A stretch of DNA of 25,394 nucleotides from NCBI GenBank assembly GCA_038150265.1, contig JAYOTF010000002.1:143252-168645 (forward strand). The letters are read 5' to 3'. Positions within the stretch are counted from its first letter, which is position 1. Each line of letters opens with the position of its first letter. This document shows positions 904 through 25,215 of this stretch, in pieces. The notes below the pieces were generated by a model. It was not told the DNA's origin. It did no database searches and saw nothing but the letters and a program-made list of their open reading frames with translations. The position numbers were made by a program, and so were the translations under genes. The DNA comes from Deltaproteobacteria bacterium. GTDB lineage: Bacteria; SAR324; NAC60-12.

Positions 904-1554
904 ATGGGTACCAAGGAACGCAAGGCGCGACTGTTTCAGGCAAGAGAGCGCGAAATTCTAGAGGTCGCCCGCGAGCTGTTTCTCGAGCACGAGTTTCACC
1001 TGGTCTCCGTGGATCGGATTGCTGAGCGGGTGGAGGTGAGCAAGGGGACGATCTACAATCACTTTGCCAGCAAGGAAGAGATCTTTGCGCAGTTGATGGT
1101 GGAGTGGCGAGAGCAGATGATTGCGCAGGTCCGGAAGGTGCCTCAGGCGCCACCGTACCTGGAGGCGCTGCGCCAGAGCATGCGGGTGATGATTCACTTC
1201 AATCTGGAAAACCCGCAGGCTTATCAACGGTTTCGGCTATTTGAGGACTATGGCGCAACACACGCGGTCAGCCCCTCCCTGCGCGAAAAACTGGCACAGC
1301 AGGAGCAGGTGATGCACCAGGGCATCACCCGGTTGCTTCAGGGCTGCATGGAGGAAGGCTCGCTCCCCAACCAGAACACGGATTCCATGTATGTCTTGGG
1401 AAAGAGCCTGATTGTGGGGATCTCGGAGTTGCTGATTCACGACCGCTTCAGCATTTCGGCGCTGCAGGATGTCGACGAGTTCATCGACTTTGCGCTCGAG
1501 CACCTCCTCGGTTGCCCGCTCAGTCGGACGCCTTCCGGATCAGCGCCTGCCTGA
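904..1554 (+). CDS. TetR/AcrR family transcriptional regulator
   Basis: N-terminal HTH 'ILEVARELFLEHEFHLVSVDRIAERVEVSKGTIYNHFASKEEIF'; start moved from 808 to ATG 904 (MGTKERKAR) to fit typical TetR length. Confidence 0.92.
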   Translation: MGTKERKARLFQAREREILEVARELFLEHEFHLVSVDRIAERVEVSKGTIYNHFASKEEIFAQLMVEWREQMIAQVRKVPQAPPYLEALRQSMRVMIHFNLENPQAYQRFRLFEDYGATHAVSPSLREKLAQQEQVMHQGITRLLQGCMEEGSLPNQNTDSMYVLGKSLIVGISELLIHDRFSISALQDVDEFIDFALEHLLGCPLSRTPSGSAPA

Positions 1555-1574
1555 GCCCTGGGGCTCCGGACCCT

Positions 1575-1862
1575 TCAGCACTCGTAATCGACGACGACAG
1601 AGCCTGAGGTCAACTCCCGGATGGTCTGAATGACGGGAAGGTGGTTGGGGTGGGTCGCATAGACTTCCAGCCCGGCCGCGTCGTCAAATACGGTGGTGAT
1701 GACGAGGTCATAGGACCGGTCGGAGTGCTTGAAGTCGAGCCCGATTTCAATGGAGCGCAGGGTCTCGATGTTGCCCTCGAGGGTTTTCAGGGAGGCCACC
1801 GCCCGGTCGAGGTTTTCCGGGGTACGCTCCTTGAGTTTGAACATGACGATGTGCTTGACCAT
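1575..1862 (-). CDS. Dabb family (stress-responsive A/B barrel) protein
   Basis: 95 aa; 'MVKHIVMFKLK...YDLVITTVFDDAAGLEVYATHPNH...VVVDYE' is the typical Dabb pattern. Confidence 0.9.
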   Translation of the reverse strand: MVKHIVMFKLKERTPENLDRAVASLKTLEGNIETLRSIEIGLDFKHSDRSYDLVITTVFDDAAGLEVYATHPNHLPVIQTIRELTSGSVVVDYEC

Positions 1863-1883
1863 AACGGCTGAAGGGAAAAAGGG

Positions 1884-3116
1884 TTAGGCGGCAATGAGCC
1901 GGTGATAGCGTTTCTTTCCGGCACGCAGCAAAATGGCTCCGTCTTGCAGGTCGGCTTCAGTGAGCTGCGCATCGGGCTGGGTCGCGGCAACGGTGTTGAC
2001 GTAGAGGCCTCCTTGCTGGAGCATCCGACGGGCCTCGCCGTTGGACTTGCAGAGTCCCACCATCCGGAAGGCGTCCAGGAGGCCGATGCCTTCCTGGAGT
2101 TGGGTCCGGGGAAGTTCGGTGGAGGGCACCTCCTCGAGGTTGCCGCCGCCACCAAAGAGGGCCGCCGCCGCGGCTTCAGCCCGCTCGGCCTCTTCGACAC
2201 CATGCAGAATGGAGGTCGTCTCAAACGCCAGGCGCTTCTTGGCTTCGCGGATCTCAGCGCCTTCCAGCTGTCCGAGCTTCCGGACCTCCTCCATGGGCAG
2301 AAAGGTGAAGAGGCCCAGGAATTTTTCCACATCCCCGTCCTCCGTGTTCACCCAGTACTGGTAGTACTCGTAAGGCGAGGTTTTTTCGGCAGAAAGCCAG
2401 ACCGCGCCCTTTTCGGTCTTGCCCATCTTCTTTCCGGAAGCAGTCGTCAGGAGCGGATAGGTCCAGCCGAACGCCGGCTTCTGCTCAACCCGTCGGATCA
2501 GGTCGACTCCGGAGATGATGTTGGCCCACTGGTCGTCGCCTCCCATCTGCAGCACACACCCGTAGCGCCGGTTCAGCTCCAGGAAGTCGTAGGACTGCAG
2601 CAGCTGGTAGTTGAACTCGAGGAACGAGAGCCCATGCTCCAAGCGCGCCTTGTAGGTCTCGTAGGAGAGCATGCGGTTGACGGAGAAGTGCCGGCCGATG
2701 TCGCGCAGGAAGTTGAGGTAGTTGAGGTCCCGGAGCCACTCCGCGTTGTTGAGGAGCAGGGAGTCTTCCGAGAAGTCGAAGAAGCGCTCCATTTGTGGGC
2801 GGATGCCTTCGATGTTGGAGTCGAGTTGCTCAACGGTGAGCATCTTCCGGGTCTCGGTCTTTCCGCTGGGGTCGCCAATCATGGCGGTACCGCCTCCCAT
2901 GAGGGCGATGATGCGGTGTCCGGCGCGTTGCAGGTGGGCCAGGCCCATGAGGGGAATGAGGTGCCCGACGTGCAGAGAGTCAGCCGTTGGGTCGAAGCCA
3001 ATGTAGGCACACAGGCGCTCCTGAGCCGCCTGCTGCAGCTCTTCCGGATGCGTGGTTTGCTGAAAGAAGCCGCGTTCACGGAAGGTGTCAAAAATGGTCA
3101 TAGCGGACGCTGTCAT
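1884..3116 (-). CDS. tyrS: Tyrosine--tRNA ligase
   Basis: YIGFDPTADSLHVGH (HIGH motif), QMGGDDQW, KMGKT (KMSKS motif), C-terminal S4 domain ending LRAGKKRY; start is ATG 3116 or 3101. Confidence 0.98.
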   Translation of the reverse strand: MTASAMTIFDTFRERGFFQQTTHPEELQQAAQERLCAYIGFDPTADSLHVGHLIPLMGLAHLQRAGHRIIALMGGGTAMIGDPSGKTETRKMLTVEQLDSNIEGIRPQMERFFDFSEDSLLLNNAEWLRDLNYLNFLRDIGRHFSVNRMLSYETYKARLEHGLSFLEFNYQLLQSYDFLELNRRYGCVLQMGGDDQWANIISGVDLIRRVEQKPAFGWTYPLLTTASGKKMGKTEKGAVWLSAEKTSPYEYYQYWVNTEDGDVEKFLGLFTFLPMEEVRKLGQLEGAEIREAKKRLAFETTSILHGVEEAERAEAAAAALFGGGGNLEEVPSTELPRTQLQEGIGLLDAFRMVGLCKSNGEARRMLQQGGLYVNTVAATQPDAQLTEADLQDGAILLRAGKKRYHRLIAA

Positions 3117-3133
3117 CGAGAAAAGCAGGTTGG

Positions 3134-3568
3134 TTAAAAAGAGCGTTGGCCGGAGCAGGCCTGGTTGCAGGAAACCTCTCGGTGCCCGCAGGAGGCCACA
3201 AGCAGTTTGCCGTTGAGGCACTCGCAGTAGCCGCTGAGGCGCCGGTCGATGACCTGATCTCCGGGCGCCGTGACCAGGGGGATGTCGGTGAGGGACGATT
3301 CGCAGACCTGCATCTGCTTCCAGACGTCATCGGTCTGGAGCGGGCTTGGAAAGTAACCCGCGTTGTCCCGGAGGACCAGGCGGCAGTTCTGCAGGCACTC
3401 GTTGTAGACCTCGGCACACCGGGGCCCGGTCAGGTTTTCTCCCAGCTGGCCACAGGCCGGATACTGGAACAGCGGATTTCGGCGGACACAGGTCTCCACG
3501 CACCCATCGGGTTCCTGGGCCAGAACATTGGTTGCCAGCAGCAGCAAGATTCCCCACAGCAGTGCCAC
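3134..3568 (-). CDS. Secreted cysteine-rich hypothetical protein (about 144 aa, 12 Cys)
   Basis: GTG at 3568 with AAGGGG RBS just after the recR stop; signal peptide 'MALLWGILLLLATNVLA|QE'; fills the recR-tyrS gap. Confidence 0.75.
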   Translation of the reverse strand: MALLWGILLLLATNVLAQEPDGCVETCVRRNPLFQYPACGQLGENLTGPRCAEVYNECLQNCRLVLRDNAGYFPSPLQTDDVWKQMQVCESSLTDIPLVTAPGDQVIDRRLSGYCECLNGKLLVASCGHREVSCNQACSGQRSF

Positions 3569-3581
3569 GTGATCCCCTTGT

Positions 3582-4178
3582 TTAGAATGATTGACGGCCG
3601 GAAAACGCTTCCATGAGGGTGACGTCATCCACATAGTCGAGGTCGCTTCCAGAAGGAAGTCCCCGGGCCAGGCGGGTGATGCGGTCCACCTTCCCGGAAA
3701 ACTCATGCTGCAGGTACAGCGCGGTTGCCTCGCCGGCCACGGTCGGGTTGGTCGCCAGGATCAGCTCCTGAACCTCGCCCCCGGCAATGCGCTTGCGGAG
3801 TGCCGCAATCTTCAGCTGTTCCGGACCAATGCCTTCCAGCGGAGAGATGGCGCCCATCAGCACGTGGTAGAGCCCCTGGTAGACGCCGCTTTTTTCGAGC
3901 GGAAAGAGGTTGTGGGGCTGCTCGACGATGCACAGCACCCGCTGATCCCGTCGGGGGTTCAGGCAGATGGTGCACAGCTCCTCCTCCGTGAAGGCGCCAC
4001 ACTGGCGGCAGGGCCGGACCCGCTCCTTGACCTCCCGGATGGCTTCGGCGAAGCGCTGGGCCTCTTCTGGGGAGTACCGGAGGACTCCCATGGCCAGACG
4101 CTGAGCGGTTTTGCGACCAATGCCGGGGAGTCGGGAAAATTCGACGACCAGCCGCTCCAGAGGTGCAGGGAGGTTCAT
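3582..4178 (-). CDS. recR: Recombination mediator RecR
   Basis: HhH 'LPGIGRKTAQRLA', C4 zinc finger 'CRQCGAFTEEELCTIC', Toprim 'ELILATNPTVAGEATA', 'RLARGLPSGSDLDYVD'; 198 aa from ATG 4178. Confidence 0.98.
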   Translation of the reverse strand: MNLPAPLERLVVEFSRLPGIGRKTAQRLAMGVLRYSPEEAQRFAEAIREVKERVRPCRQCGAFTEEELCTICLNPRRDQRVLCIVEQPHNLFPLEKSGVYQGLYHVLMGAISPLEGIGPEQLKIAALRKRIAGGEVQELILATNPTVAGEATALYLQHEFSGKVDRITRLARGLPSGSDLDYVDDVTLMEAFSGRQSF

Positions 4179-4699: not shown

Positions 4700-4914
4700 T
4701 CCGTTTGCTCTCATTTTTGTGCAACGGCTCATTTAGCCGGAATCTCGCGGAAAGTACAAGCTACTGAAAACGCATTGCGAATGTCGTGCTTGAGCCCAGA
4801 CGCCATCCGCCTTATGATGAGGACCTCCGGAAGGAAACCCCGGAGGCAACCCAACGAACCGGCACCGACTCCCCCGCCCTGGTGCTGGAACGGCCATCAA
4901 GAAAGGCTTGGAAC

Positions 4915-5127: not shown

Positions 5128-5137
5128 CGGAGAGGCT

Positions 5138-5521: not shown

Positions 5522-5523
5522 GC

Positions 5524-6150
5524 ATGTTTACAGGAATTGTTCAGGGGACCCGCCCCGTCACCCAGGTGCTTCCACGCGAAGGCACCGTGCGCCTCCGGGT
5601 GCAGTTGGCAGACCTGGCCGCTGATCTGCAGCGTGGCGCCAGTGTGGCCCTCAACGGAACCTGCCTGACCGCGGTGACCATTGAAAACGGCGAGGCGGAA
5701 TTTGATGTCATTCAGGAGTCCCTCAACCGGACCAACCTCAAGGATCTCAAGGAAGGGGATCGTGTGAACATCGAACGCGCGGCTCGCTTTGGAGACGAAA
5801 TTGGCGGGCATCAGGTCAATGGGCACGTCGATGACACCGGCACCCTTGCCCGCATCGAACGCACTCCCAACAACTGCGTGGTGACAGTGGCCCATGCGCC
5901 GGAGTGGTCCCGCTTTGTGGTCTCCAAGGGCTGGATCGCGATTGATGGCATCAGCCTGACGGTGGTTGACGTGAGCCCCGGCTCCTTCTCGGTCAGCCTC
6001 ATTCCGGAGACGCTGGAGCAGACGCTCATGGGCACCCGGAGGGAAGGAGCGCTCGTGAACCTGGAGTTTGACCACCTGGCCAAGTTGGTGTATCAGACCA
6101 CTGAGGCCTTCCTCGAACGTTGGAAATCCGAACAAGCGGGGCCCTCATGA
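5524..6150 (+). CDS. ribC: Riboflavin synthase (alpha-chain type; RibC in E. coli nomenclature)
   Basis: MFTGIV N-terminus, NGTCLT, VNIERA, GGHQVNGHVD, KGWIAIDGISLTV, LIPETL, VNLEFD. Confidence 0.96.
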   Translation: MFTGIVQGTRPVTQVLPREGTVRLRVQLADLAADLQRGASVALNGTCLTAVTIENGEAEFDVIQESLNRTNLKDLKEGDRVNIERAARFGDEIGGHQVNGHVDDTGTLARIERTPNNCVVTVAHAPEWSRFVVSKGWIAIDGISLTVVDVSPGSFSVSLIPETLEQTLMGTRREGALVNLEFDHLAKLVYQTTEAFLERWKSEQAGPS

Positions 6151-7352
6151 AGCGCGGGAACCTTTGGGGCCTGGTGGCGGTCCTCGCCTTGGTCAGTGCC
6201 TGTAGCCTGACCCCGAAAACGGGCCTGCAGTCGCTGTCTCCGGAACAGGCTGCGCAGGTGGCCTTTACCGATGATGATGCCTTCAACGGCATGGCAGCTG
6301 CCGCAACCCGCTCCCTTGAGTACTACCAGCGGCTTCCGGATTCTCGCCAGTTTTCCTATGGCGACCAGACCTACTCGGCGCGTGAGATGGAGGCCTCCAC
6401 CCAGCACTTCCTGGACCTGCTGGCCGCTTACGAAGGTGCCGAACTGGAGGCACAGCTGCAACGCGATTTCTGGTTCTTTGAGAGCCGTAACGAAGACGGC
6501 CAGGCCTTCTTCACCGGGTACTACGAGCCGGTCCTGCGCGGAAGTGTGACCCAAACGGCTGCGTTTGCGGCGCCGCTTTATGCCAAGCCGGAAGACCTGG
6601 TGGAAGCCGACCTGGGGGCCTTTGCCGACGACCTCAAGGGGCGGACGCTGCGTGGGAAGCTTCAGGGCAACCGACTGGTGCCGTATGACAACCGTGAGGC
6701 CATCGTCTATCAGGGCTCGCTGGACAACCGGGCTGAGCCCCTGGCCTTTCTGGAGAATGACATTGAGGTGTTCTTTCTGCAGATTCAGGGCTCCGGACTC
6801 GTGCAACTCGACAACGGAACCCTGCTGCGCCTCAACTATGCCGGCCAGAACGGCCACGCTTACTTTGCCATCGGACGCCTGCTGCTCGACCAGATTCCGC
6901 GTGAGCAGATGTCCCTGCAGTCCATCAAGGAGTACCTCTACGCGCATCCGGATGAGGTTCAGGAAATCCTGACGGCCAACCCGAGCTACACCTTCTTCCG
7001 GCCGGTTCCGGAAGGGCCGCTGGGCAACATTGAGGTGCCGCTCACGCCTGGGCGGTCCCTGGCAGCCGACCGTCGGCTGTTGCCCAAAGGCAGCCTGGCC
7101 TGGTTTGAAACGACGTATCCACCTGAGGCCTTCCCGGAAGAAGCAGGCGTCCGCCCGCTCCGGCGCTTTGGCGTCATTCAAGACACCGGAGGCGCCATCA
7201 AGGGGCATGGCCGTGCCGACGTGTTCTGGGGCAATGGCCCGACGGCGGAACGCCTTGCTGGTCCGATGAAGCAGACCGGACGGCTGTTTCTGCTGGTTGC
7301 CAAAAAAGAGGTGCTTCCCCAGACGCGACCTGCCGTTTCCCAGCACCCCTGA
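6147..7352 (+). CDS. mltA: Membrane-bound lytic murein transglycosylase A (lipoprotein)
   Basis: Lipobox LVSAC; FTGYYEP, FFLQIQGSG, YAGQNGH, NPSYTFF, QDTGGAIKGHGRADVFWGNG; ATGA overlap with the upstream gene. Confidence 0.95.
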   Translation: MKRGNLWGLVAVLALVSACSLTPKTGLQSLSPEQAAQVAFTDDDAFNGMAAAATRSLEYYQRLPDSRQFSYGDQTYSAREMEASTQHFLDLLAAYEGAELEAQLQRDFWFFESRNEDGQAFFTGYYEPVLRGSVTQTAAFAAPLYAKPEDLVEADLGAFADDLKGRTLRGKLQGNRLVPYDNREAIVYQGSLDNRAEPLAFLENDIEVFFLQIQGSGLVQLDNGTLLRLNYAGQNGHAYFAIGRLLLDQIPREQMSLQSIKEYLYAHPDEVQEILTANPSYTFFRPVPEGPLGNIEVPLTPGRSLAADRRLLPKGSLAWFETTYPPEAFPEEAGVRPLRRFGVIQDTGGAIKGHGRADVFWGNGPTAERLAGPMKQTGRLFLLVAKKEVLPQTRPAVSQHP

Positions 7353-7419
7353 CTGACCCTGCTCGCACCTCCCGCCAGCAACGGTTTCCCGCCGCATTCA
7401 TCTCCTTCCGAGGCACGTC

Positions 7420-9996
7420 ATGCTGGACGCCTTCCTGAACCAAACCGCCCACTGGTTTGAGCTCCTTCCTGAGCGCCTTGCGCGCCGGGGTCGCTCAATT
7501 GGGCTCATCTTCATCCTGGTCACCATGGGGCTGGGAGCAGGAATCCCGGGACTGAAGGTGGACATGACCCTGGAATCCTACTTTCAGGAGGATGACCCGA
7601 TGAAGGTCAACCTCGACCGCTTCCGGGCCCTCTTCGGAAGTGACGAGGTGACCTACATCATCTATCGTGCGAAGGATGGCGACATCTTCTCTGATGCCTC
7701 GCTCCGTGCGCTTCAGGGCATTCAGCAGGAGCTGCAGGCCGCGCGAACCAGTCGGAACTCGGCGGAACCGGATCCGCTGGACCACCTCACGGAGGTCCGG
7801 ACCCTGCTCAATGCCTCCTACCTGGAGGCGACCGACGACGCCTTGATTTCGCGCCGGTTCATCGGCGACCGCCTTCCGCAGAACGAAGCCGAGCGCGAAG
7901 CCCTGCGCCAGGCGGCTCTGGCTCATCCGGACTTCCCGCTCTTCTTCCTGTCCCGCGATTCGGAGTATGGTGGGCTCATCCTCCGGACGGATTTTGGAAC
8001 ACGCCTGAAGGGGGCGGAGCCTCCGGAGGCGCCTTCTTCAGAGCCGACGGCCTCCGGAGACGAGTTTGGCTTTGGCGGTGACCTGGAAGAGGCGCTGGTG
8101 GATTTTTCAGGTGAGCCCGCGGTGGTGGAAGCCAGCCGGACGGAGGGGCTTCCGGAGTTTCAGCGGACTGAAATGGAGGAATACGGGGGCTTCGCGCAGG
8201 CCGTGCATCAGATTTTGGAGCAGCCTCAGTACCTCGATGCCCTTGAGTACCACCCGGTGGGCATGCCGGAGCTGATGTTCTTCCTCATGGAGACGGTCAT
8301 GACCGAGATGGGCGTGGTGTCGCTCGGGTCGCTCCTGCTGATCCTGGGGGCGCTGGCGCTGCTGTTCCGCTCCTGGAGCGCCATGGTCTGGCCGGTTGTG
8401 CTGGTGGTCGGGGCGCTGGTGTGGGTGCTGGGGCTGGTCGGTTGGATGGGGATGACGATGAGCTCGATGGTGACCATCATCGTGTACCTGGTGCTGGCGG
8501 TCGGTGTCTCTGATGCCGTTCACATTCTTTCCGGGTACCTCTACTTCCGGAACCTGGGCCAGGACCACCGGGAGGCGCTGCGGCTCACGTTTCAGAAGAG
8601 CGGGCTGGCTTGTGTCCTCACCAGCGTCACCACGGCCATCGGGCTGCTCTCGTTGCTGCTGGTGCCGATTGTGCCGATCAGCACCTTCGGGATGTTTTCG
8701 GCACTGGGAGTGGGGCTGGCGTTGCTGATGACGCTGTTCTGGCTTCCGATCATGCTCGATCGTTGGGCGCCGTCGCCTCGTCCGTCAGGCGGCACCCGCT
8801 CACGGCACCATGGGGTGCAGCAACTGCTGCAACGGCTGGAGCCCTTGAGCTACCAGGCGCCCGTAGCGGTGACACTGGCGTTTGCGGGCATCGGAGCAGT
8901 GCTGCTGGTGGGTGTCTTCCGGGTGCAGGTGGACTCCAACATGGTCAACCTCATCAAGGAGGGGGTGCCGCTCCGGGAAACCTATGAGCTGGTGGACCAG
9001 AAGATGAGCGGGACCAATAGCATGGAACTGCTGATTGATGGCAAGCAGGCGGGGGTGCTCAAGGATCCGGACGTGCTGCAGGCGATGGACGACCTGCAGC
9101 GTCACCTGGAGCAGCAGTATCCCGACCTGGTGACCCGCACCACGTCTCTGGTCAACATCGTCAAGGATTCCTACCGGGTCCTCAATGAGGGCCGTCCAGA
9201 CTGGTATCGGCTTCCGGAAGATCCGGCGGTGCTGAGCAACACCCTCTTTCTCTTCAACAACGCCGACCCCGGAGAGCGGCGACGCGTGGTGACGGATGAT
9301 TACGCGATGGGACGCATTGCCGTCAGCCTCCGGAACGCCGGCTCGCAGGAGTACCGGGCCTTGATTGATGAGACCGAACAGTGGGCTCACCAGCGCTTTG
9401 CCCCTCTGCTGGGCAAGTATCCGGACCTGACCATTGGTGGAACCGGAACCCTTGCGCTGACGATGGTGCTGACCGACTACATCAGCTGGTCGCAGATCAA
9501 GAGCTTCGGGCTGGCCCTGGCGGTCATTTCAGCGCTGCTGCTGATCACCTTCGGCTCCCTCAAGGCGGGGCTGGTGGCCCTCTTTCCGAACCTCTTCCCA
9601 ATCCTGACCATCTTTGGCCTGATGGGCTGGCTGGAGATGCCGCTGGACGCGGACACCTTGCTGATTGCCCCCATCACCATCGGCATTGCCGTGGATGACA
9701 CCATTCACTTCCTCACGCACTACCGCGCCGAAATTCAGGTCCGGAACGATCCACGAGAAGCGATTCGCCATGCCTTCCGGGAGACGGGGCAGGCCATCAG
9801 CTTTACGTCCATCATCCTGTCACTGGGGTTCCTCATCTTCGTGTTTTCCACCCATCAGGGGCTGAGCAACTTCGGAGTCATGAGTGCCGTCGCGTTTGTT
9901 GCCGCCCTGCTTGCCGACCTGCTGCTGCTTCCGTCGCTGTGCTTGCTGGTCAACCTGCGCTTTGGTGCCCAGCAACCGGTGCCGGTGGCGACTTGA
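7420..9996 (+). CDS. MMPL/RND superfamily transporter
   Basis: 858 aa; two repeats of TM + large periplasmic loop + 5 TM; motifs AVGVSDAVH and GIAVDDTIHF. Confidence 0.92.
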   Translation: MLDAFLNQTAHWFELLPERLARRGRSIGLIFILVTMGLGAGIPGLKVDMTLESYFQEDDPMKVNLDRFRALFGSDEVTYIIYRAKDGDIFSDASLRALQGIQQELQAARTSRNSAEPDPLDHLTEVRTLLNASYLEATDDALISRRFIGDRLPQNEAEREALRQAALAHPDFPLFFLSRDSEYGGLILRTDFGTRLKGAEPPEAPSSEPTASGDEFGFGGDLEEALVDFSGEPAVVEASRTEGLPEFQRTEMEEYGGFAQAVHQILEQPQYLDALEYHPVGMPELMFFLMETVMTEMGVVSLGSLLLILGALALLFRSWSAMVWPVVLVVGALVWVLGLVGWMGMTMSSMVTIIVYLVLAVGVSDAVHILSGYLYFRNLGQDHREALRLTFQKSGLACVLTSVTTAIGLLSLLLVPIVPISTFGMFSALGVGLALLMTLFWLPIMLDRWAPSPRPSGGTRSRHHGVQQLLQRLEPLSYQAPVAVTLAFAGIGAVLLVGVFRVQVDSNMVNLIKEGVPLRETYELVDQKMSGTNSMELLIDGKQAGVLKDPDVLQAMDDLQRHLEQQYPDLVTRTTSLVNIVKDSYRVLNEGRPDWYRLPEDPAVLSNTLFLFNNADPGERRRVVTDDYAMGRIAVSLRNAGSQEYRALIDETEQWAHQRFAPLLGKYPDLTIGGTGTLALTMVLTDYISWSQIKSFGLALAVISALLLITFGSLKAGLVALFPNLFPILTIFGLMGWLEMPLDADTLLIAPITIGIAVDDTIHFLTHYRAEIQVRNDPREAIRHAFRETGQAISFTSIILSLGFLIFVFSTHQGLSNFGVMSAVAFVAALLADLLLLPSLCLLVNLRFGAQQPVPVAT

Positions 9997-12308: not shown

Positions 12309-12331
12309 TTTCACCACTTACGGCATCCTCA

Positions 12332-14080
12332 ATGGCTGTTTCCCGCCCCCGTGCCCGTTTTCTGTGTGCCCTGTTCAGCCTCCTTGGCCTGCTGAGTGTT
12401 GCGGCTCTCCCGGCCCCGGCCCAGCCGCTCAAACTGGAAGCGCTCGTGCTTCCGCTCAAGGTGGAGGGCCTTCAGGATGAAAAAGCCGGGCCGATTCTGC
12501 AGCAGCAGGCGCTGGCGGAGCTGTCTCAATCGTTTGACCTGAAGTCGGAGCAGGAAATGCTCGCGGCCCGCGACAAGGCCATTGACCGGATTGCCTCGGA
12601 CGAATGCACAGAGGAGGCGTGCATCAAGGTCATGGGGGAGCTGCTGGATGTGGACTACACCTTCACTCTGAGTGTGACCGCGTCCGGAGACTACTGGAGC
12701 TTCACCGGCATCCGTTCCGAACCGCTGGGCCGTCGGGTGCGCAAGAACCTGGTTTGCGAGCAGTGCACGCTGCCGAAAGCCCGGCGGGTGCTCACCGAGC
12801 TGCTGCTGGGATTGCGTCCGGGCAGCGCCGTGGCAGGCACCGGCGAGGCGATTCTGATCCTGGAGTCGGAGCCGAGTGGCCTTGTGTTTGTCAACGGGCT
12901 GTCGCAGGGCAGCACGCCCCTGGAGGTGGCAGTGCCCGTGTCCGGGCCCGTGGACGTCCTCATTGTGGCAGAAGGCTACACCGATTTTGCAAAGGTGTAC
13001 GAAAGCCTGCAGGCGGGAGAAGAGGTGGTGGAAACGGTCCGGTTGGTCCGCAAGCGCGCCCGAGCGTCCCTGGTCTCTGAGCCTTCCGGAGCCGAGATCT
13101 GGCTGGATGGCAAGCCCCTCAAGCGTCCGGATGGCTCGGTTCGGGTGACACCCGATGAGATTCGTCCGGAGTATGGCTCCCACGAACTGGAGCTGAAACT
13201 TGCGCGCTACCAGTCCTTTCAGACCCGCCTGGACGTGGAGGAGCGAGACCTGGGAACGCTCCGGTATGAGCTGACGCCCAAGCCGGGGCGGCTCGTGGTG
13301 CGGGTGCCTGGGAAGTTTCGCGAGGCTGATGTTCTGCGGGAGGGGCAGGTGTTGGGAGGCATGGAGGGGCAGATTGCCCGGACCTTTTCCGTGGAGGCCG
13401 CTCAGCTCCTGACGCTGCAGGTGGTTTCCGGAACCTTCCGCTCAGAAGTGCAGTCTGTGACGGTGCCTCCAGACGGATCGGCAACAGTGAGCTTTGAGAG
13501 CTTTTCAGAAGCGGAGGCCTCAACCCGGACGCCTTCGGGGTGGAACCGCGACTGGCACCTTTCGCTGTGGGACGGAAGCGCGTCGGCAGGGCTGGCGTAT
13601 GGCTCCATCACCATGACCTTCAACCAGGACACCTCGGATGAAATTCAGCTTTCCTACGGACTCACCGGTGCGGATCTGCAGGTGGGACGCATGGCGTTGC
13701 AGTGGATGAGCGCCGAGGGGGAAATGAGCGACGCGACGGGCGAGGCGGTGGATTCCTTTTACTACTCCAGTGACACGGGCATCCAACAGGTCACCGAGAC
13801 CAATGCGAGCCTGGTGCGGTTGCTGTACACCGCGAATCAGAGCGGCTGGATGGGCTCGGCAGGGTATGAGCAGGTGACCCTGAACTTTCAGACCCTGCGC
13901 CAGACGGAGACGGTACAGATGACCCACCCGACCTTTGATGTGGGCTATCGCTGGAACTGGTCCCGCTGGTTCCTGAGCCTCCGTTACCGGATGGCGCTCT
14001 CGTTTGCCAATGAGTGGGGACGGCAGTCAGCCTTTGGGGTGATCTTTGCCACGGGCGCTCGCTTTGGAAACACACCTTGA
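12332..14080 (+). CDS. PEGA-domain exported protein with probable C-terminal beta-barrel
   Basis: Signal peptide; PEGA repeats 'LESEPSGLVFVNGLSQGSTPL' and 'VSEPSGAEIWLDG...TP'; aromatic beta-strand-rich C-terminus; start taken as ATG 12332. Confidence 0.8.
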   Translation: MAVSRPRARFLCALFSLLGLLSVAALPAPAQPLKLEALVLPLKVEGLQDEKAGPILQQQALAELSQSFDLKSEQEMLAARDKAIDRIASDECTEEACIKVMGELLDVDYTFTLSVTASGDYWSFTGIRSEPLGRRVRKNLVCEQCTLPKARRVLTELLLGLRPGSAVAGTGEAILILESEPSGLVFVNGLSQGSTPLEVAVPVSGPVDVLIVAEGYTDFAKVYESLQAGEEVVETVRLVRKRARASLVSEPSGAEIWLDGKPLKRPDGSVRVTPDEIRPEYGSHELELKLARYQSFQTRLDVEERDLGTLRYELTPKPGRLVVRVPGKFREADVLREGQVLGGMEGQIARTFSVEAAQLLTLQVVSGTFRSEVQSVTVPPDGSATVSFESFSEAEASTRTPSGWNRDWHLSLWDGSASAGLAYGSITMTFNQDTSDEIQLSYGLTGADLQVGRMALQWMSAEGEMSDATGEAVDSFYYSSDTGIQQVTETNASLVRLLYTANQSGWMGSAGYEQVTLNFQTLRQTETVQMTHPTFDVGYRWNWSRWFLSLRYRMALSFANEWGRQSAFGVIFATGARFGNTP

Positions 14081-14735: not shown

Positions 14736-15509
14736 ATGGAGGTCATTCCCATTCCCTGTCTGAAGGACAACTACGCCTACCTGCTGATCTGTCCCGATAC
14801 TCGCGAGGCCGCGGTGGTGGACCCTTCAGAAGCCCCTCCGGTTCAGCAGGCGCTGCAGGACCATCAGGCCCAACTGGTCGCCATCTTCAACACGCACCAC
14901 CACTGGGATCATGTGGGGGGCAACGAAGCGCTCTTTGCCGCGTTTCCAGGAATCCGGGTCTACGGACATGCCTCGGATCAGGGGCGCATCCCGCAGCAAA
15001 CGGAATTCCTTGAAGAAGGAAACACGGTTGAGTTCGGGAGCCAAAGTGGCGCTATCACACACAACCCCGGACACACCACCGGCGCCATTTCCTACATCTT
15101 CGGAGACTCGGTCTTCACAGGCGATACACTGTTTGCTGCCGGATGCGGACGCCTGTTTGAAGGCACGGCCGAAGACCTGCACCGCTCCTTGAACAAGCAG
15201 ATCGGCCGACTTCCGGACTCCACTCGGGTCTGGTTTGGACACGAGTACACGGCTCGGAACCTCGAGTTTGCGCTGGAGGTGGAGCCCGGCAATGCCACTG
15301 CTCGCCGGAAGCTGGCTGAGGTCCGGACCCTCCGGAATGCCGGAAGGTTCACCACACCCTCCACGCTCCGCTCCGAGCGGGAGACCAACCCCTTCATGCG
15401 CTGTTCCAGTCCCGAAATCCGGGAGCGCGTCCTTCAGGAAGACCCTGGCAACGACCTCTCGGAGGTGGCGGTGCTCCGGGTGCTTCGTTCTCTCAAAGAT
15501 CAGTTCTGA
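14736..15509 (+). CDS. gloB: Hydroxyacylglutathione hydrolase (glyoxalase II)
   Basis: DNYAYL, THHHWDHVGG (HxHxDH), PGHT, FTGDTLFAAGCGRLFEG, GHEYT, ETNPFMR. Confidence 0.96.
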   Translation: MEVIPIPCLKDNYAYLLICPDTREAAVVDPSEAPPVQQALQDHQAQLVAIFNTHHHWDHVGGNEALFAAFPGIRVYGHASDQGRIPQQTEFLEEGNTVEFGSQSGAITHNPGHTTGAISYIFGDSVFTGDTLFAAGCGRLFEGTAEDLHRSLNKQIGRLPDSTRVWFGHEYTARNLEFALEVEPGNATARRKLAEVRTLRNAGRFTTPSTLRSERETNPFMRCSSPEIRERVLQEDPGNDLSEVAVLRVLRSLKDQF

Positions 15510-16098: not shown

Positions 16099-16853
16099 GC
16101 ACTGCACTCCCGAAATCCCGAGCCCCCCACTTTCCGGAAACAAGACGGATCTCGCTCCGCTCCGAAGGCGTTCGGCGGTTCCGGACCCAATCCGGCAGGC
16201 AAGGAGGCTTCTCCTTCAAGCTGGACGGATTCCGACCTTCCGTGGCTTCTGCCACTTCAGATAAACCTCTCCCCCTCCGGACCTGACTAGGCCGAATCCA
16301 CCGAGTTCTCCAAGCGCCACCGAAACGAGACCCGGGGCGTCCTGGAGTGAGTGGCACCCACCTCCGGGACCGGTCAAAGGCATCCCGGAGTCCGGATCAG
16401 GCCTGTCGTCCAAGGGGAACGGTCCGCTTTCGATGGAAAGCTTCCGGGCCCTGTTGGGAGCAGCACCTGGCACAGACACCAGCAAACACTTCGACAGCAT
16501 CACCGATGGTTCGTGAAGACGAATGAAGGCCCAGCCTCCTCATGGAGTTCAGGACAGAATCCGAGGAGCCATGGGGCGTCAGCAGCAGGCCCACCAAGGC
16601 AACCAAGGGTGTGGAGGGAAGACACAGGTCTGGGAAAACACTCCGGGGCTCAAGAGGTCGAGCAGGCCGACCTCTCCCTTGAGTCGCAGAGTCTGAAAAC
16701 TCGACCAGCGGGCAGCCTTGCTTCAGAAGAAGCACCTGTCCGGATGAGCCTCAGTTGTTCCCCACAGGGATGCGTCTGTCCTCCGACGGTTCCTTGAGGA
16801 GCGCCACGAACACCAGTCCGGGGCCGCGTTTCAGGAAAACGGGAGTGCAGTGC
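16099..16853 (+). ncRNA. Candidate large structured non-coding RNA (755 nt), class unknown
   Basis: Perfect 14-bp end-to-end helix 16099-16112/16840-16853; more than 15 nested helices; G-U wobbles and A-rich loops favour the + strand; no credible CDS. Confidence 0.55.
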
Positions 16854-19374: not shown

Positions 19375-19457
19375 GTGGGATTAGCACGAGGGACGCCATC
19401 AGGAGCGTGCCTGCGATCAGAAAGCGAGGAGCCTCCGGAGGAACACACGGAAGCGAA

Positions 19458-21854: not shown

Positions 21855-22709
21855 ATGATAGTTCAGCGCAATTCCGGGCCCGACTCCGGGGGAAAGACGA
21901 AAAAACTACTGATGGGATTCTTGCTTCTTCTCGGAGCAGGAAGCCTGGGCCCCGCCCTGGCAGAAGCCGGGGTGATGCAGTGGGCGGATTTGATGTACCA
22001 GATGAAGGAGCAGGTCAGCTGGGGCGGCATGGAGATTCAGACGCAGGTTCAGGTGTACGACCCCACCCGCAGCGAGCGCGACGCCAAGGGGAACCCGCTT
22101 CCTGTGGAAGTTCCGGCTCGTGGCTACACGCAGACCCTTCACTGGCAAGACAACGGGGTCTTGATGGTGGAAACCTTCGACGCTTCCGGAGCGCTGGTTC
22201 ACCTCTGGTGGGAGCACCATGGTGAGCAGATGGAGTGGTCGGGGAAACCCGGCTTTACGCATGAAGAGGTGCGCTGGCCGTGGCTGGAGTTTGCGTCGCG
22301 GCATCCAGACGTCCGGGAGCAGGCGCTCCGGGAGTGGGGGGTGGAGTCGCTGGCCGTGACCCAGGAGCTGGATGAACAGGAAGCAGTCTTCTACCGCGTT
22401 GGGCATCCGGATTCCGGAGCCTACGCCTGGATTGACCCCAAGACCTTTCAGCTGCATGCGTTGCGGCGGCCGTGGACGGTGCCTCAGGGAAGCTGGCTGC
22501 AGGAGGTCCGCTTTGAGGAGTTCAAGTCCTACCGCCAGCAAGACTATCCTTCCGTGGCCGAGTTCCGCCTCAATGGGAAGCTGTACAAGAAGCTGACGGT
22601 GACCAAGGTTCAGCGGGTGGGCGACCTTCCCCTCGGAACCCTCAGGGAGCAGGTGCTGCAGAAGCAGATCCGCTCGGAATCTCCAGCCTGGAGGGACGAT
22701 GCACGTTAA
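21855..22709 (+). CDS. Hypothetical exported protein, possible LolA-like fold
   Basis: Signal-like segment ending ALA; C-terminus 'EVRFEEFKSYRQQDYPSVAEFRLNGKLYKKLTVTKV' resembles LolA-like beta sheets; start uncertain (21843/21855/21912). Confidence 0.7.
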   Translation: MIVQRNSGPDSGGKTKKLLMGFLLLLGAGSLGPALAEAGVMQWADLMYQMKEQVSWGGMEIQTQVQVYDPTRSERDAKGNPLPVEVPARGYTQTLHWQDNGVLMVETFDASGALVHLWWEHHGEQMEWSGKPGFTHEEVRWPWLEFASRHPDVREQALREWGVESLAVTQELDEQEAVFYRVGHPDSGAYAWIDPKTFQLHALRRPWTVPQGSWLQEVRFEEFKSYRQQDYPSVAEFRLNGKLYKKLTVTKVQRVGDLPLGTLREQVLQKQIRSESPAWRDDAR

Positions 22710-23607
22710 ACGTGGGGCCCTGCTGCTGGGCGCCGTGCTGGCCAGTGCCGTGGCGTTTGGAGCCGATCCGCAGGTCATTGACCGAGTGGCCATTGTGGTC
22801 AACCAGCAGATGCTGACCCTCAGCGAAGTTGAGGAGGCCACTGCTTCTGCAAAGGCGCAGAGCCGCCTGCAACAGCTCCCTCCGGACTTTCAGGACCGGG
22901 TGGTGCAGCAGTTGGTAGAGGAGCTGCTGCTGCTGGACTACGCTCAGGCAAACAGCATTGAGGTCAAGGATCAGGAGGTCGAGGACCGCCTGGCCGCGCT
23001 CGAAGAACGGAACCCGCAGCTTCTCCAGACCTACTCCCGGGTGGAGCTCCAGGAACGCATCGTCAAGGACCTGAAGCGTCAGCGGGTGCTGGGGCGTGAG
23101 GTGGACCCAAAGATTCGGGTTGAGGAGGCAATGGTCCAGACCGCCTGTGAGCAGGAGCGGAGCCTGCAGCGCGAGGTCGAGCTGGGGCAGATCCTCTTCC
23201 GCAAGGACGAAGCCCAGGCTCAGGCTCAGGCCCAGCAGGTCCGCCAGCGGCTTGCCGAGGGAGCAACCTTTGAGAGCCTTGCACGCCTGTACTCCGATGA
23301 CCCGGCGGCTCAGGAAAACGGCGGACGTGTCGGGGTGTTCCGTCGCGGGCAGATTCTTCCAGAGATTGACCAGGCCGCCTTTGCCCTGAAGGTTGGAGAG
23401 GTGAGTGACCTGGTGCAGACGCAGTTCGGGTTTCACCTGCTGACCCTCTTTTCAGAACGCTTCCCGGAAGGCAGCGGGTGCGACAACCTGACGGAAGAGC
23501 GGCGCCGGGCTCTCTCGGATCGGGCCTACCAGCAGGAGCGAGACCGGCTGGCCCGCGAGTTTCTCAGCAAGCTGCGCGAGAACGCTGAGGTCTCAGTTCG
23601 CCTCTGA
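22699..23607 (+). CDS. SurA-like parvulin peptidyl-prolyl isomerase / periplasmic chaperone
   Basis: 'IDRVAIVVNQQMLTLSEV' SurA N-terminus; 'FESLARLYSDD...NGGRVG...AFALKVGEVSDLVQTQFGFHLL' single rotamase domain. Confidence 0.92.
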   Translation: MHVKRGALLLGAVLASAVAFGADPQVIDRVAIVVNQQMLTLSEVEEATASAKAQSRLQQLPPDFQDRVVQQLVEELLLLDYAQANSIEVKDQEVEDRLAALEERNPQLLQTYSRVELQERIVKDLKRQRVLGREVDPKIRVEEAMVQTACEQERSLQREVELGQILFRKDEAQAQAQAQQVRQRLAEGATFESLARLYSDDPAAQENGGRVGVFRRGQILPEIDQAAFALKVGEVSDLVQTQFGFHLLTLFSERFPEGSGCDNLTEERRRALSDRAYQQERDRLAREFLSKLRENAEVSVRL

Positions 23608-25215
23608 AGCAAAGTCCTCCGGAACCTCTCCTTCCTCCCAAAATCCAATCCGGATGCCAAGCTGCAATGAGCGTCCCCGGCGGGCCACCAGTTCCCTCGA
23701 GGAGCGGGTGACGCGTTGGGAGTGCCTCAGGCTCCACTCCAGCAGCAACTCCTTCATTTCAGACACCACCCTGGTGTGAGCGGCGCTGGTGCCAAGGTCT
23801 TCCTGCTCCAGCGGATCTTCCTGCAAGTCATACAGAATCGGACGGAACCCCGGGGCATGGAGGTACTTCCAGCGCTCCGTGGCGACCATGAAAACCCGGG
23901 CGTCTTCAGGGGTCCGGCCCAGCGCCGAGGCCATGGGGGTGACGGTGTAGTCGTATTCGCTGAAGGCGACTCCCTTCAACGCCTGTCCCGGGCCCTGCCT
24001 CAGCACTGGCAGCAGAGATTGTCCCTCTAGCCGAGGATGCGGAAGCTCGGCGCCGAGTGCGTCCAGGAAGGTCGGGATGAGGTCGATGGCCTGCACCGGA
24101 GTGGCACAGACGGAGCCGCGAGTGGCCTCTGCCTCTGCAGACGGATCGTAGCAAATCAGCGGAATCCGGACGGAAGGCTCATGGAACCAGTCCTTTTCTC
24201 CGAGCCAGTGATCGCCGAGGTAGTCTCCGTGGTCCGAGGTGAAGACGATGAGCGTGTGCTCCCAAAGCCCCTGTTCCTGCAGGGCGTGGAAGACGCGTCC
24301 GAGGTGGTCATCCAGCTGCTTGATGAGGCCCATGTAGGTGGGGAGCACGTGCTCCCGGACGCCTTCGCGGGCAAAGGTCTGGCTGACGTGTGTGTTCATG
24401 AAGGCCCGGTAAACCGGATGCGCGGCCGCTCGCTCCTCAGGCGTCCGGACGCGTGGAATCAGGTCGTCTGCTCCGTAAAGCTGGTGATACGGCGCCGGTG
24501 CCAGGTAAGGCCAGTGGGGCTTGATGTAGGAAAGGTGCAGGCACCACGGCTCCGGATGCGTCTGGAAGAACTTGAGGGCCTGGTCGGTGGTGTAGGCGGT
24601 TTCGGAGTGGGCCTCATCGACCCGGGCCGGTCGGTGGGCGTGGCGCATGTACCAGCCTTCGAGCAACTCTCCTCCGGGGCCTTCGGCAGCGTTGGCCCAG
24701 TCGTTCCAGGGGTTTTTCCCCGCATAGCCCATTTGGTTGAGGTAGGCTTCATAAGCCGACTGCTCCGGGTTGTAACGTCCCGCAGGCCCTTCCGGGTAGA
24801 GCCCTTCCATGCGATCCAACACGTCAAATCCGCACTCCAGCAGCCGTTTCCCTTCCGGGGTCTTCAGGTTCACGCCCAGGCGCTGAAGCTCGGGAGTGTC
24901 GGGGTAGAAGTGAGTCTTTCCCACTAGCCAGGTCGCCCGCCCCTGTTGGCGGAGGTAGTCCCCAAGCGTCCACTCGCCGGGTCGGAGGGGGATGCCGTTC
25001 CAGGTGGCGCCATGCGACTGCGCGTAACGCCCGGTGTAGAACGACATCCGGGACGGGCCGCAGATGGGAGAGGCACAGTAGGCGCGGGTGAACCGGACGC
25101 CCTGGGAGGCCAGCCAGTCGAGGTGGGGCGTCTGGAGGGTGGGGTGCCCGTAGCAAGAGAGGTAGTCGGCCCGAAGTTGATCGGCCATGATGAATAAGAT
25201 GTTCCGGACTGCCAT
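23593..25215 (-). CDS. Sulfatase-family hydrolase (alkaline phosphatase superfamily; phosphonate monoester hydrolase-like)
   Basis: NILFIMADQLR, CGPSR (CxPxR formylglycine motif), SYIKPHWPY, FTSDHGDYLGDH, EK; no signal peptide. Confidence 0.92.
   Translation of the reverse strand: MAVRNILFIMADQLRADYLSCYGHPTLQTPHLDWLASQGVRFTRAYCASPICGPSRMSFYTGRYAQSHGATWNGIPLRPGEWTLGDYLRQQGRATWLVGKTHFYPDTPELQRLGVNLKTPEGKRLLECGFDVLDRMEGLYPEGPAGRYNPEQSAYEAYLNQMGYAGKNPWNDWANAAEGPGGELLEGWYMRHAHRPARVDEAHSETAYTTDQALKFFQTHPEPWCLHLSYIKPHWPYLAPAPYHQLYGADDLIPRVRTPEERAAAHPVYRAFMNTHVSQTFAREGVREHVLPTYMGLIKQLDDHLGRVFHALQEQGLWEHTLIVFTSDHGDYLGDHWLGEKDWFHEPSVRIPLICYDPSAEAEATRGSVCATPVQAIDLIPTFLDALGAELPHPRLEGQSLLPVLRQGPGQALKGVAFSEYDYTVTPMASALGRTPEDARVFMVATERWKYLHAPGFRPILYDLQEDPLEQEDLGTSAAHTRVVSEMKELLLEWSLRHSQRVTRSSRELVARRGRSLQLGIRIGFWEEGEVPEDFASEAN

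Follow-up and report, generated by a model that had tools for sequence, protein, structure and literature searches.

A highly iterated palindrome, TCCGGA, in one branch of SAR324: helically phased sites and a putative dimeric reader

What keeps a single six-base palindrome, TCCGGA, so frequent in the DNA of an uncultured marine bacterium of the SAR324 phylum? To our knowledge, the function of highly iterated palindromes (HIPs) has been open ever since HIP1 was described in cyanobacteria, and in the literature we found no paper describing TCCGGA as a word of this kind. The preliminary description of the 25,394-base stretch of DNA analyzed here (the window) estimated about 80 sites where 8-9 were expected, and proposed a HIP-type system that might serve methylation-directed repair, chromosome organisation or DNA uptake.

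Excess of TCCGGA in the window and in the genome

The window (61.6% GC) contains exactly 80 matches to TCCGGA between positions 1130 and 25208, on average one per 305 bp, and every coordinate listed in the preliminary description is among them. The expectation from 100 dinucleotide-preserving shuffles was 9.60 sites on average (sd 2.89); 0 of the 100 reached 80, the largest count being 16. Codon frames 0, 1 and 2 hold 16, 22 and 34 sites, respectively, and the remaining 8 of the 80 lie outside called genes, as had been claimed of sites between genes. Genes were called with our own rough caller (2,725 genes, 89% coding), and the genes used as examples are supported by Pfam matches. Against these genes the three frame examples given earlier are correct: frame 2 (xxT CCG GAx) at 6003..6008 (+) in a riboflavin synthase (Lum_binding) gene (5524-6150), frame 0 (TCC GGA, Ser-Gly) at 6792..6797 (+) in an MltA gene (6120-7352), and frame 1 (xTC CGG Axx) at 7796..7801 (+) in an MMPL/RND gene (7420-9996). 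Sites outside called genes are found at 1565..1570, 4424-4429 and 19434-19439, and five sites (16133, 16180, 16276, 16391 and 16739; 16133..16744) fall within a stretch of about 1 kb that has no called gene.

The idea that the enrichment might be peculiar to the window fails. The source assembly (G000; 3.39 Mb, 97.8% complete, 87 contigs, in which the spacing of sites was analyzed at short range) carries 9,711 TCCGGA sites, or 2.86 per kb, more than any other of the 4,096 hexamers. Observed/expected ratios under Markov models of orders 0 to 4 were 8.7, 7.6, 3.95, 2.39 and 1.22; the excess almost disappears at order 4 only because the pentamers TCCGG and CCGGA are themselves given in that null, and 54% of them (19,422/36,035) lie inside a full TCCGGA site. 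When synonymous codons were shuffled within each gene, which preserves both the protein sequence and the codon usage of the gene, 8,755 sites were observed where 2,099 were expected (ratio 4.17, 30 shuffles), and all three codon frames were raised (3.89, 3.28 and 5.12). A shuffle of whole codons gave 6.79. TCCGGA ranked first among the 4,096 hexamers under the synonymous shuffle, by both z and ratio, and under the whole-codon shuffle, so that the enrichment survives codon-shuffled nulls of the kind called for in the preliminary description. At Markov order 1 the ratio was 6.1 in non-coding DNA and 5.0 in short intergenic DNA. An excess that spans the three frames as well as non-coding DNA indicates a signal at the level of DNA. 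Within coding sequences, TCCGGA occupies 8,755 of the 21,322 places where the protein permits it (41%), and TCC-GGA encodes 33.5% of Ser-Gly pairs compared with the 8.1% predicted by codon usage.

The excess is specific to the whole word. In the table of NCCGGN words the T..A cell holds 19,422 counts against 1,490-8,006 for the other cells, and the other 63 hexamer palindromes lack the excess, the next best having an observed/expected ratio of 1.58. Variants differing at an outer position reached 1.57 (CCCGGA/TCCGGG), 1.38 (ACCGGA/TCCGGT) and 0.97 (GCCGGA/TCCGGC), and those differing at an inner position 0.64-1.34; the bias of one-off variants toward the first and last positions is that of HIP-class words, the value of 0.97 notwithstanding. 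The flanks of the sites carry at most 0.08 bit of information, and no pair among the phased pairs at 31-63 bp (see below) has spacers at least 80% identical. Flank information near zero and unrelated spacers rule out a dispersed element of the REP or MITE type. The force that maintains TCCGGA is thus neither codon usage, nor protein sequence, nor a repeated element.

Patchy distribution and turnover of sites within SAR324

We surveyed 88 genomes of the SAR324 phylum, expressing TCCGGA relative to the composition-matched control AGGCCT. TCCGGA was at least three times as frequent as AGGCCT in 37 of the 88 and at most a third as frequent in 11. Enriched genomes account for 15 of the 18 in genus g11 and for 3 of 3 in each of g19 and g1, and 9 of the 19 f7 genomes are enriched, while all 9 genomes of genus g2 are non-enriched (ratios 0.8-1.2). 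In 70 loci from other phyla the pooled observed/expected ratio was 1.24, compared with 2.5-15.5 in 9 of 10 SAR324 loci. The survey of related taxa that had been recommended therefore confirms an enrichment shared by many relatives, if patchily, and with the evidence above it bears out the HIP-type claim: TCCGGA is a highly iterated palindrome belonging to one branch of the SAR324 phylum, found across the genome, whatever the codon frame, and outside coding sequence too.

At the other extreme, a 235-kb sample of G087 contains 0 TCCGGA sites where 63 were expected, and GTATAC, GTCGAC and CTCGAG are also lost. TCCGGA is the recognition site of BspEI, AccIII and Kpn2I, and sister SAR324 lineages appear to restrict this same word. 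The 11 depleted genomes resemble classical restriction-site avoidance, in that the word is evidently seen by sequence-specific enzymes in the phylum, but the sign is opposite in the source genome and 36 others, where it is enriched.

Apparent restriction of the word by sister lineages also fits the idea that TCCGGA might mark DNA of the own lineage, either as an uptake sequence for natural transformation or as a Chi-like signal for recombination or protection from degradation. The confinement of the excess to SAR324 loci and the even spread of sites (variance/mean 1.22 per 10 kb, longest gap 3.6 kb) fit such a role, and recent work, as far as the available text goes, reports a connection of HIP1 with transformation, and with horizontal transfer as well (bioRxiv 10.1101/2024.09.10.611283, PMC13756078). 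We nevertheless regard this self-recognition signal as improbable, since same-face spacing of 10.5 bp would not be expected of copies that are read singly. Moreover, the uptake sequences known so far, like Chi, are asymmetric, strand-biased words of 8-12 nt, and a six-base palindrome with nearly uninformative flanks does not fall into that class.

We then consider whether sites persist. With G002, of the same genus as the source genome, 500 sites are shared, out of 1,136 (44%) and 890 (56%). The corresponding background is 33% over all hexamers, other NCCGGN words lie at 18-38%, and TCCGGA ranks 244 of 1,622, a conservation above background but modestly raised. When different genera are compared, places permitted in both are occupied almost independently, with odds ratios by frame of 2.13, 2.24 and 0.99 for G062 and 1.59, 0.92 and 1.13 for G032. 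This near-independence fits a blind mutational or repair drive equally well as weak selection. Accordingly, the palindrome might be a functionless by-product of the replication and repair enzymes of the lineage, whose context-dependent bias would favor TCCGGA; the modest positional conservation agrees with this, and the excess amounts by simple arithmetic to a log-odds of about 1.9 per site, which a weak bias could attain. However, a bias acting base by base does not account for a six-base target with two-fold symmetry when the NCCGGN neighbors and the 63 other palindromes show no excess. It also leaves unexplained why the excess is present across genomes of very different base composition and why sites are helically phased in four genera. 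A by-product therefore seems to us quite unlikely.

Spacing of sites on the DNA helix

In the source genome the distances between TCCGGA sites are periodic, with a spectral power of 37.1 at 10.5 bp; jittered sites gave maxima of 7.5 and 8.4 (two nulls of 200 runs each), and 10 control hexamers gave at most 7.4. Examples can be seen in the window. Four sites in the MMPL gene (7926, 7982, 8022 and 8053; 7926..8058) are separated by 56, 40 and 31 bp, a local case of near-helical spacing, and three sites in a PEGA-domain gene at 12290-14080 (13085, 13126 and 13165; 13085..13170) by 41 and 39 bp. A pair at 15322..15336 is 9 bp apart, which is the first spacing peak (45 such pairs genome-wide), and another at 22406..22418 is 7 bp apart. 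Masking 68 kb of self-similar DNA left the power at 37.0, and phasing was found for pairs in the same frame (15.5), in different frames (24.1) and including a non-coding site (10.3). No A/T, AA/TT or GC periodicity was seen around the sites (relative amplitude at most 2%). The cause of the phasing is neither repeats, codons nor A/T tracts. CCCGGA/TCCGGG is the single one-off variant in phase with TCCGGA (power 13.5). The amplitude falls from 0.43 through 0.24 and 0.14 to 0.12 across 7-218 bp, and phasing affects part of the pairs only (32.4 on-phase versus 24.2 off-phase pairs per position).

Phasing extends to relatives. In sampled DNA we obtained 8.6 at 10.4 bp for G002 (1 of 200 null runs as high), 7.7 at 9.9 bp for G062 (0 of 200) and 9.3 at 10.5 bp for G032, a genome of 43% GC (0 of 200). 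For G001, no period reached significance in 400 kb of sampled DNA (4.8; 24 of 200 null runs as high), yet its distance preference is visible in whole-genome counts. Pairs at 36-38, 41-43 and 46-48 bp number 64/129/52 in the source genome, 14/79/14 in G032, 23/72/28 in G039 and 10/36/7 in G005, whereas the opposite pattern is found in G001 (63/22/57), G062 (75/10/68) and G063 (26/0/33). Relatives thus form two spacing classes, of about 10.5 and about 10.0 bp, and phasing is found in four genera spanning 43-61% GC. Of the roles proposed at the outset, chromosome organisation gains indirect support from this phasing.

Phasing that reaches about 100-200 bp brings to mind an enzyme that wraps DNA. 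Gyrase and topoisomerase IV, around which about 130 bp of DNA are wrapped, cleave sites of two-fold symmetry with a 4-base stagger. TCCGGA could be a preferred site of such a core enzyme, given its 4-base CCGG core and its even distribution over the genome. The GC or AT periodicity expected of a wrapping signal is missing from the flanks, though, and close relatives, all of which must have gyrase, differ in the trait, every g2 genome lacking it. We consider this explanation highly improbable.

Methylation, repair and a putative reader

The likeness of TCCGGA to HIP1 (GCGATCGC) and the alternate cyanobacterial HIPs is extensive, as far as the available parts of the sources go. These are likewise GC-rich palindromes far commoner than other words (PMC4390886, PMC5861425); they occur in every codon frame as well as between genes, characterize a lineage apart from exceptional genomes without the word, and have enriched one-off variants at the outer positions. 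Conservation somewhat above background is reported for HIP1 (Xu et al., 2018, PMC5861425). TCCGGA differs in being another word in another phylum, with 0 occurrences in the available part of Elhai 2015 (PMC4390886), in its density (2.9 per kb compared with about 1 per kb for HIP1), and in its near-elimination from sister lineages. It also differs in its phasing at 10-10.5 bp: the periods given by Xu et al. (PMC5861425) are of 18-94 kb, and the available text contains no instance of the word "helical".

In the model of Elhai for HIP1, applied here, an orphan methyltransferase would mark TCCGGA or its core, methyl-dependent mismatch repair would be biased toward the site until saturation, and the repair system would be the only reader. 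A cognate methyltransferase has been reported in each genome with an alternate HIP (GGCGCC, GCsGC and rCCGGy) in the part of Elhai 2015 available (PMC4390886), and the outer-position bias of our variants is the one described there. The search for an orphan methyltransferase that had been suggested yielded two PF01555-like (N4/N6-type) candidates in the source genome, both with an SPPY motif: L081:1441-2217 (PF01555, E 1.5e-22) and L083:248-1387, whose best solved relative is a DNA cytosine-N4 methyltransferase (E 1.7e-5). Neither co-varies with TCCGGA enrichment over the 88 genomes. The C45 methylase, encoded behind a retron-type reverse transcriptase, has an orthologue in G001 only (71% identity), and the C51 family is found in the depleted genome G017 and in 7 of the 9 genomes of g2, which are not enriched, but in 0 of the 19 f7 genomes, 9 of them enriched. 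In the genera with the strongest enrichment, C5 methylases are absent or present as fragments (0 of 3 in g19, fragments in 3 of 18 in g11). The source genome has no match to the C5 methylase (PF00145), Vsr (PF03852), type I (PF02384), SeqA (PF03925) or MutH (PF02976) families, and a single weak match (27 bits) to the Dam-class family PF02086, inside the divergent C51 candidate gene. With no cognate methyltransferase found, in contrast to the cyanobacterial HIPs, the earlier link to methylation-directed repair is not supported by gene content. The density is also above the level of about 1 per kb at which, according to the available text of PMC4390886, sites should saturate, and such a repair ratchet alone predicts no helical phasing. 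We therefore consider it unlikely.

Two bacterial systems offer partial parallels. In E. coli, CCWGG is methylated by Dcm, and very-short-patch repair with Vsr enriches the methylated palindrome, which shows how a repair process can enrich such a word. Enrichment of this type is not supported here: C5 methylase and Vsr are absent from the source genome, and the T-for-C neighbors that such repair would remove are not depleted (TCTGGA/TCCAGA 1.27, TTCGGA/TCCGAA 0.91), which also speaks against the ratchet. GATC, likewise a short palindrome read on double-stranded DNA, is only slightly over-represented in Gammaproteobacteria, compared with an excess of 4-8 fold for TCCGGA. SeqA needs two or more GATC sites on the same helix face, making it the closest known analogue of the spacing, but a Dam/SeqA/MutH system is not what the source genome encodes.

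We favor, with moderate confidence, the interpretation that TCCGGA is a HIP-like motif that is probably read by a putative abundant dimeric DNA-binding protein. A force acting on double-stranded DNA would hold TCCGGA at about 40% of the places permitted by proteins, with a similar excess between genes. The reader would be an abundant, sequence-specific protein of two-fold symmetry that recognizes the hexamer, the palindromic word pointing to a dimer and the same-face spacing to protein-protein contact; copies on one face may interact over up to about 100-200 bp, in the manner of a nucleoid organiser or SeqA. Weak selection, or a repair bias coupled to binding, would keep site density at equilibrium. 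Individual sites would then be gained and lost, with density and local spacing retained because neighboring sites prefer whole numbers of helical turns. Our searches of the source genome yielded no candidate for the reader, and neither a histone-fold protein nor a Bse634I/NgoMIV-type enzyme, although two of these searches were weak, their controls matching in no genome. Operator-like arrays were likewise missing (0 clusters with 5 or more sites within 120 bp, and triplets between genes in just 11 cases).

More tentatively, the SAR324 chromosome may be packaged by a putative sequence-specific nucleoid protein through some 10,000 TCCGGA words per genome on one helix face, with a written repeat that differs between species (about 10.5 or about 10.0 bp). 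If sister lineages restrict the word, the motif could serve as a chromatin code and, in a conflict over foreign DNA, as a mark of lineage too.

TCCGGA is an independent case of a HIP in an abundant, uncultured ocean phylum, and it offers three testable features: a simple word of six bases; a physical signature, the same-face spacing of 10-10.5 bp decaying over about 100-200 bp; and the co-occurrence, in one family or phylum, of genomes that are enriched, neutral or nearly devoid of sites. The spacing signature predicts a dimeric binding protein, and which oligonucleotide spacings should or should not support cooperative binding, while the natural contrast among genomes is suited to phylogenetic profiling. 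In practical terms, the abundance of TCCGGA skews the k-mer statistics used for binning, and BspEI-type enzymes would cut DNA of the source organism every 350 bp. Taken together, occupancy of about 40% and spacing by helical turns suggest that a putative DNA-binding protein reads the chromosome through TCCGGA.

TCCGGA in the window and across the genome

The window (G000:C2:143252-168645, where G000 is the source assembly of 3,393,712 bases in 87 contigs, 97.8% complete) contains exactly 80 TCCGGA sites, while dinucleotide-preserving shuffles gave a mean of 9.6 and a maximum of 16 (n = 100). The preliminary description had estimated about 80, and all of the coordinates that it listed proved right. 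Its statement that the word falls in all three codon frames was likewise borne out, as its three examples are correct and the sites divide into 16, 22 and 34 in frames 0, 1 and 2, with 8 outside called genes. GC content is 61.6% overall and 58-63% along the length of the window. The genes are ordinary chromosomal ones, encoding a TetR-family regulator, TyrRS, RecR, riboflavin synthase, MltA, an MMPL transporter, LolA-like and DUF1302 proteins, PEGA, uridine kinase, glyoxalase II, a HEAT-repeat protein, a SurA-like protein and a sulfatase; the TyrRS gene has its nearest named relatives in SAR324-cluster metagenome genomes. A region of about 1 kb (15950-17004) has no called gene and no listed ORF of at least 150 aa, and carries five TCCGGA sites. 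There is an overlap of 286 bases between the LolA-like ORF (10039-10911) and the DUF1302 ORF, listed as 10626-12308, whose true start is probably further downstream.

The excess is not restricted to the window. We found 9,711 sites in G000 (2.86 per kb), making TCCGGA the commonest of the 4,096 hexamers, with 19,422 occurrences on both strands vs. 10,913 for the next hexamer. Among NCCGGN words, the T..A cell holds these 19,422 occurrences and the other cells 1,490-8,006. Observed/expected ratios under Markov models of order 0 to 4 were 8.7, 7.6, 3.95, 2.39 and 1.22. Loss of the enrichment under a higher-order model had been named beforehand as grounds for abandoning it; the order-4 value is no refutation, however, because TCCGG and CCGGA are themselves given in that null, and 54% of these pentamers sit inside the full site. 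When the 64 hexamer palindromes were compared, the next best after TCCGGA had an observed/expected ratio of 1.58.

For the codon-based nulls (30 shuffles each), genes were called with a rough caller trained on the Pfam-supported genes of the window, which yielded 2,725 genes covering 89% of G000 and overlooks some genes, such as that at 10626-12308 in the window. A within-gene shuffle of synonymous codons, which leaves the protein and the gene's own codon usage intact, put the expectation at 2,099 sites vs. 8,755 observed (ratio 4.17; 3.89, 3.28 and 5.12 in frames 0, 1 and 2), and a whole-codon shuffle put it at 1,290 (ratio 6.79). TCCGGA ranked first among all hexamers under both nulls, by z and by ratio. 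The word occupies 41% (8,755/21,322) of the places in G000 where the protein sequence permits it, and Ser-Gly pairs are encoded as TCC-GGA in 33.5% of cases vs. 8.1% expected from codon usage. It is also the commonest hexamer in non-coding DNA, with 913 sites in 384,547 bases (observed/expected 6.1, order 1) and a ratio of 5.0 in intergenic pieces shorter than 300 bases. The two shuffles and the non-coding DNA led us to reject an origin in codon or dipeptide bias. As a separate observation, many TA-containing hexamers are depleted 10-30 fold in G000 coding DNA relative to the synonymous-shuffle null, including ATTAAT (4 observed vs. 131 expected), CTTAAG (19 vs. 353) and CATATG (9 observed, ratio 0.07).

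Site density is even across G000, with a variance/mean of 1.22 per 10 kb and a range of 1.0-5.0 per kb. Close to start codons (within 50 bp) it falls to 1.6-1.8 per kb. A search of G000 for foreign site-free islands found none, the longest TCCGGA-free stretches lying in ordinary transporter genes.

Helical spacing of sites

Distances between sites in G000 peak at 9, 18-20, 30-31, 41-42, 51-52, 63, 72, 84 and 93 bp. After removal of the trend and of codon periodicity, spectral power was 37.1 at 10.5 bp, compared with a maximum of 7.4 among ten control hexamers and maxima of 7.5 and 8.4 in two sets of 200 null runs in which sites were shifted by multiples of 3 within 15 bp, preserving frame and local density. 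Phasing was detected for pairs in the same frame (power 15.5), pairs in different frames (24.1) and pairs that include a non-coding site (10.3). Its relative amplitude was 0.43 at 7-59 bp, then 0.24, 0.14 and 0.12, and did not exceed 0.11 past 220 bp. Just one of the nine classes of one-off variants, CCCGGA/TCCGGG, was phased with TCCGGA (power 13.5). We found no A/T-tract, AA/TT or GC periodicity around the sites. We rejected the idea that the word belongs to a longer motif or a repeat element, as the flanks hold at most 0.08 bit, the spacers of phased pairs are unrelated to one another, and masking 68 kb of self-similar DNA had no effect (power 37.0).

The phasing recurred in sampled DNA from three relatives: G002 (400 kb; power 8.6 at 10.4 bp, reached by 1 of 200 null runs), G062 (747 kb, 56% GC; 7.7 at 9.9 bp, 0 of 200) and G032 (398 kb, 43% GC; 9.3 at 10.5 bp, 0 of 200). 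The test on 400 kb of G001 was not significant (power 4.8, reached by 24 of 200 null runs); window counts over its whole genome showed the distance preference of the class opposite to that of G000. We defined these classes in family f1 by whole-genome pair counts at 36-38, 41-43 and 46-48 bp. Distances of 41-43 bp are favored in G000 (64/129/52), G002 (44/67/39), G005 (10/36/7) and 12 of the 13 genomes of genus g11 with at least 20 such pairs (e.g., G032, 14/79/14), the exception being a tie in G041 (24/24/8). The same distances are avoided in G001 (63/22/57) and in the three genomes of genus g19 (G061, 58/7/47; G062, 75/10/68; G063, 26/0/33). Taken with the fitted periods, these counts suggest repeat lengths of about 10.5 bp for the genomes favoring 41-43 bp and about 10.0 bp for those avoiding it. 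Because G001 shares a genus with G000 yet falls in the opposite class, the spacing class can change between related species.

Distribution across SAR324 and turnover of sites

We surveyed 88 genomes of the SAR324 phylum using the ratio of TCCGGA to AGGCCT (the same letters reversed). The ratio was at least 3 in 37 of the 88, a count over genomes that are related to one another and thus not independent, and in one of the 37, G065, it rests on just 13 vs. 4 occurrences. Ratios were 5.9 in G000, 3.9 and 5.0 in other members of its genus, up to 32 in genus g11 (15 of 18 genomes enriched) and 14-30 in genus g19 (3 of 3); 9 of 19 genomes of family f7 were also enriched. All nine genomes of genus g2 had ratios of 0.8-1.2. 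Samples of G002 and G062 had TCCGGA as their commonest hexamer, and in a sample of G040 (42% GC) it was fourth by count, after runs of N, AAAAAA and TTTTTT. Nine of 10 SAR324 loci had observed/expected ratios of 2.5-15.5; 70 loci from other phyla (1.1 Mb) had a pooled ratio of 1.24 and a maximum of 2.99.

The ratio was one third or less in 11 genomes, leaving the others neutral. The TCCGGA-poor relatives are G081 and G083-G087 of family f7 together with G015, G017, G020, G067 and G068. The extreme is G087, with 15 TCCGGA vs. 1,435 AGGCCT; in a 235-kb sample of this genome TCCGGA was absent vs. 63 expected, GTATAC and GTCGAC were also absent, and CTCGAG occurred once vs. 34 expected. Such losses are classic restriction avoidance. 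Near-elimination in these relatives means that a word hyper-abundant in part of the phylum is avoided elsewhere within it.

In an alignment of G002 with G000 (384,773 columns, 81.4% identity), 500 sites were common to both, representing 44% of 1,136 in G000 and 56% of 890 in G002. Hexamers as a whole were conserved at 33%, and other NCCGGN words at 18-38%; by conservation, TCCGGA ranked 244 of 1,622. At permitted places shared by orthologs, odds ratios for joint occupancy by frame were 4.9, 11.4 and 2.1 within the genus (G002), compared with 2.13, 2.24 and 0.99 (G062; 1,505 places) and 1.59, 0.92 and 1.13 (G032; 584 places) between genera. These values indicate that density and spacing are kept and that particular places are not.

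Methylase genes and the nature of the signal

The preliminary description had linked TCCGGA to a DNA methyltransferase, and this link was not supported by a search of G000, which found no PF00145, Vsr or PF02384 and two PF01555-like genes, neither tracking the enrichment. Both have an SPPY motif, which we take to be typical of N4-cytosine enzymes. At the first (contig C45, L081:35-3159), the gene of an RVT_1 reverse transcriptase of retron type (NCBIfam retron St85, 200 bits) runs 4 bases into that of a 258-aa beta-class PF01555 methylase, which is followed by an unassigned 311-aa ORF. This locus may be a retron defense unit with a methylase partner. Among the 88 genomes, only G001 has an ortholog of the C45 methylase (71% identity), and this genus-limited gene was rejected as a correlate of the trait. 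The second (contig C51, L083:2-1387; G002 copy at L091:451-2643) encodes a divergent methylase-like protein with motifs DPFMGGGT ... ITSPPYPG and a long, highly charged N-terminal Arg/Asp/Glu repeat, with a weak LED-repeat match in G002; among solved structures, its best match is a DNA cytosine-N4 methyltransferase (E 1.7e-5). This gene is present in single copy in 32 of 44 genomes of family f1 and 18 of 19 of f2, these including 7 of 9 of the non-enriched g2, but in none of 19 of f7, and was rejected as vertically inherited and uncorrelated with enrichment.

Genera g1, g11 and g19 have no C5 methylases or only fragments of them, and the relation of these enzymes to enrichment is, if anything, an anti-correlation. 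Full-length C5 methylases are found in five of the six strongly depleted f7 genomes and are not orthologous (26-50% identity). One of them, in G084 (G084:C5, L197:6919-9050), belongs to a complete HpaII-type restriction-modification pair, with RE_HpaII (E 1.9e-119) adjoining a C5 methylase (E 2.7e-105). A very-short-patch-like signature was also rejected, as no one-off neighbor of TCCGGA is depleted beyond 0.64. A methylation ratchet, as set out for HIP1, the highly iterated palindrome of cyanobacteria, by Elhai (2015; PMC4390886), is a possible alternative explanation of the excess; however, the enzymes it requires are missing here and it does not predict helical phasing.

Searches of G000 for a histone fold (PF00808), SeqA and MutH gave no matches, nor did those for the CCGG-family restriction folds PF07832 and PF09015, which are weak negatives because control genomes gave none either. 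No arrays resembling operators, which could have led to a reader gene, were found in G000. In the literature searched (full text of articles), we found no report of TCCGGA hyper-abundance or of SAR324 palindromes.

The results show a six-base palindromic signal that lies at the level of the DNA, extends across the lineage, is helically phased and turns over site by site. We propose that a two-fold symmetric protein reads TCCGGA, and that bound copies of this protein may interact with each other along a single helix face. By our own arithmetic, occupancy relative to the codon null corresponds to a log-odds of about 1.9, and the density of sites would be held by weak selection or by a repair bias coupled to binding.
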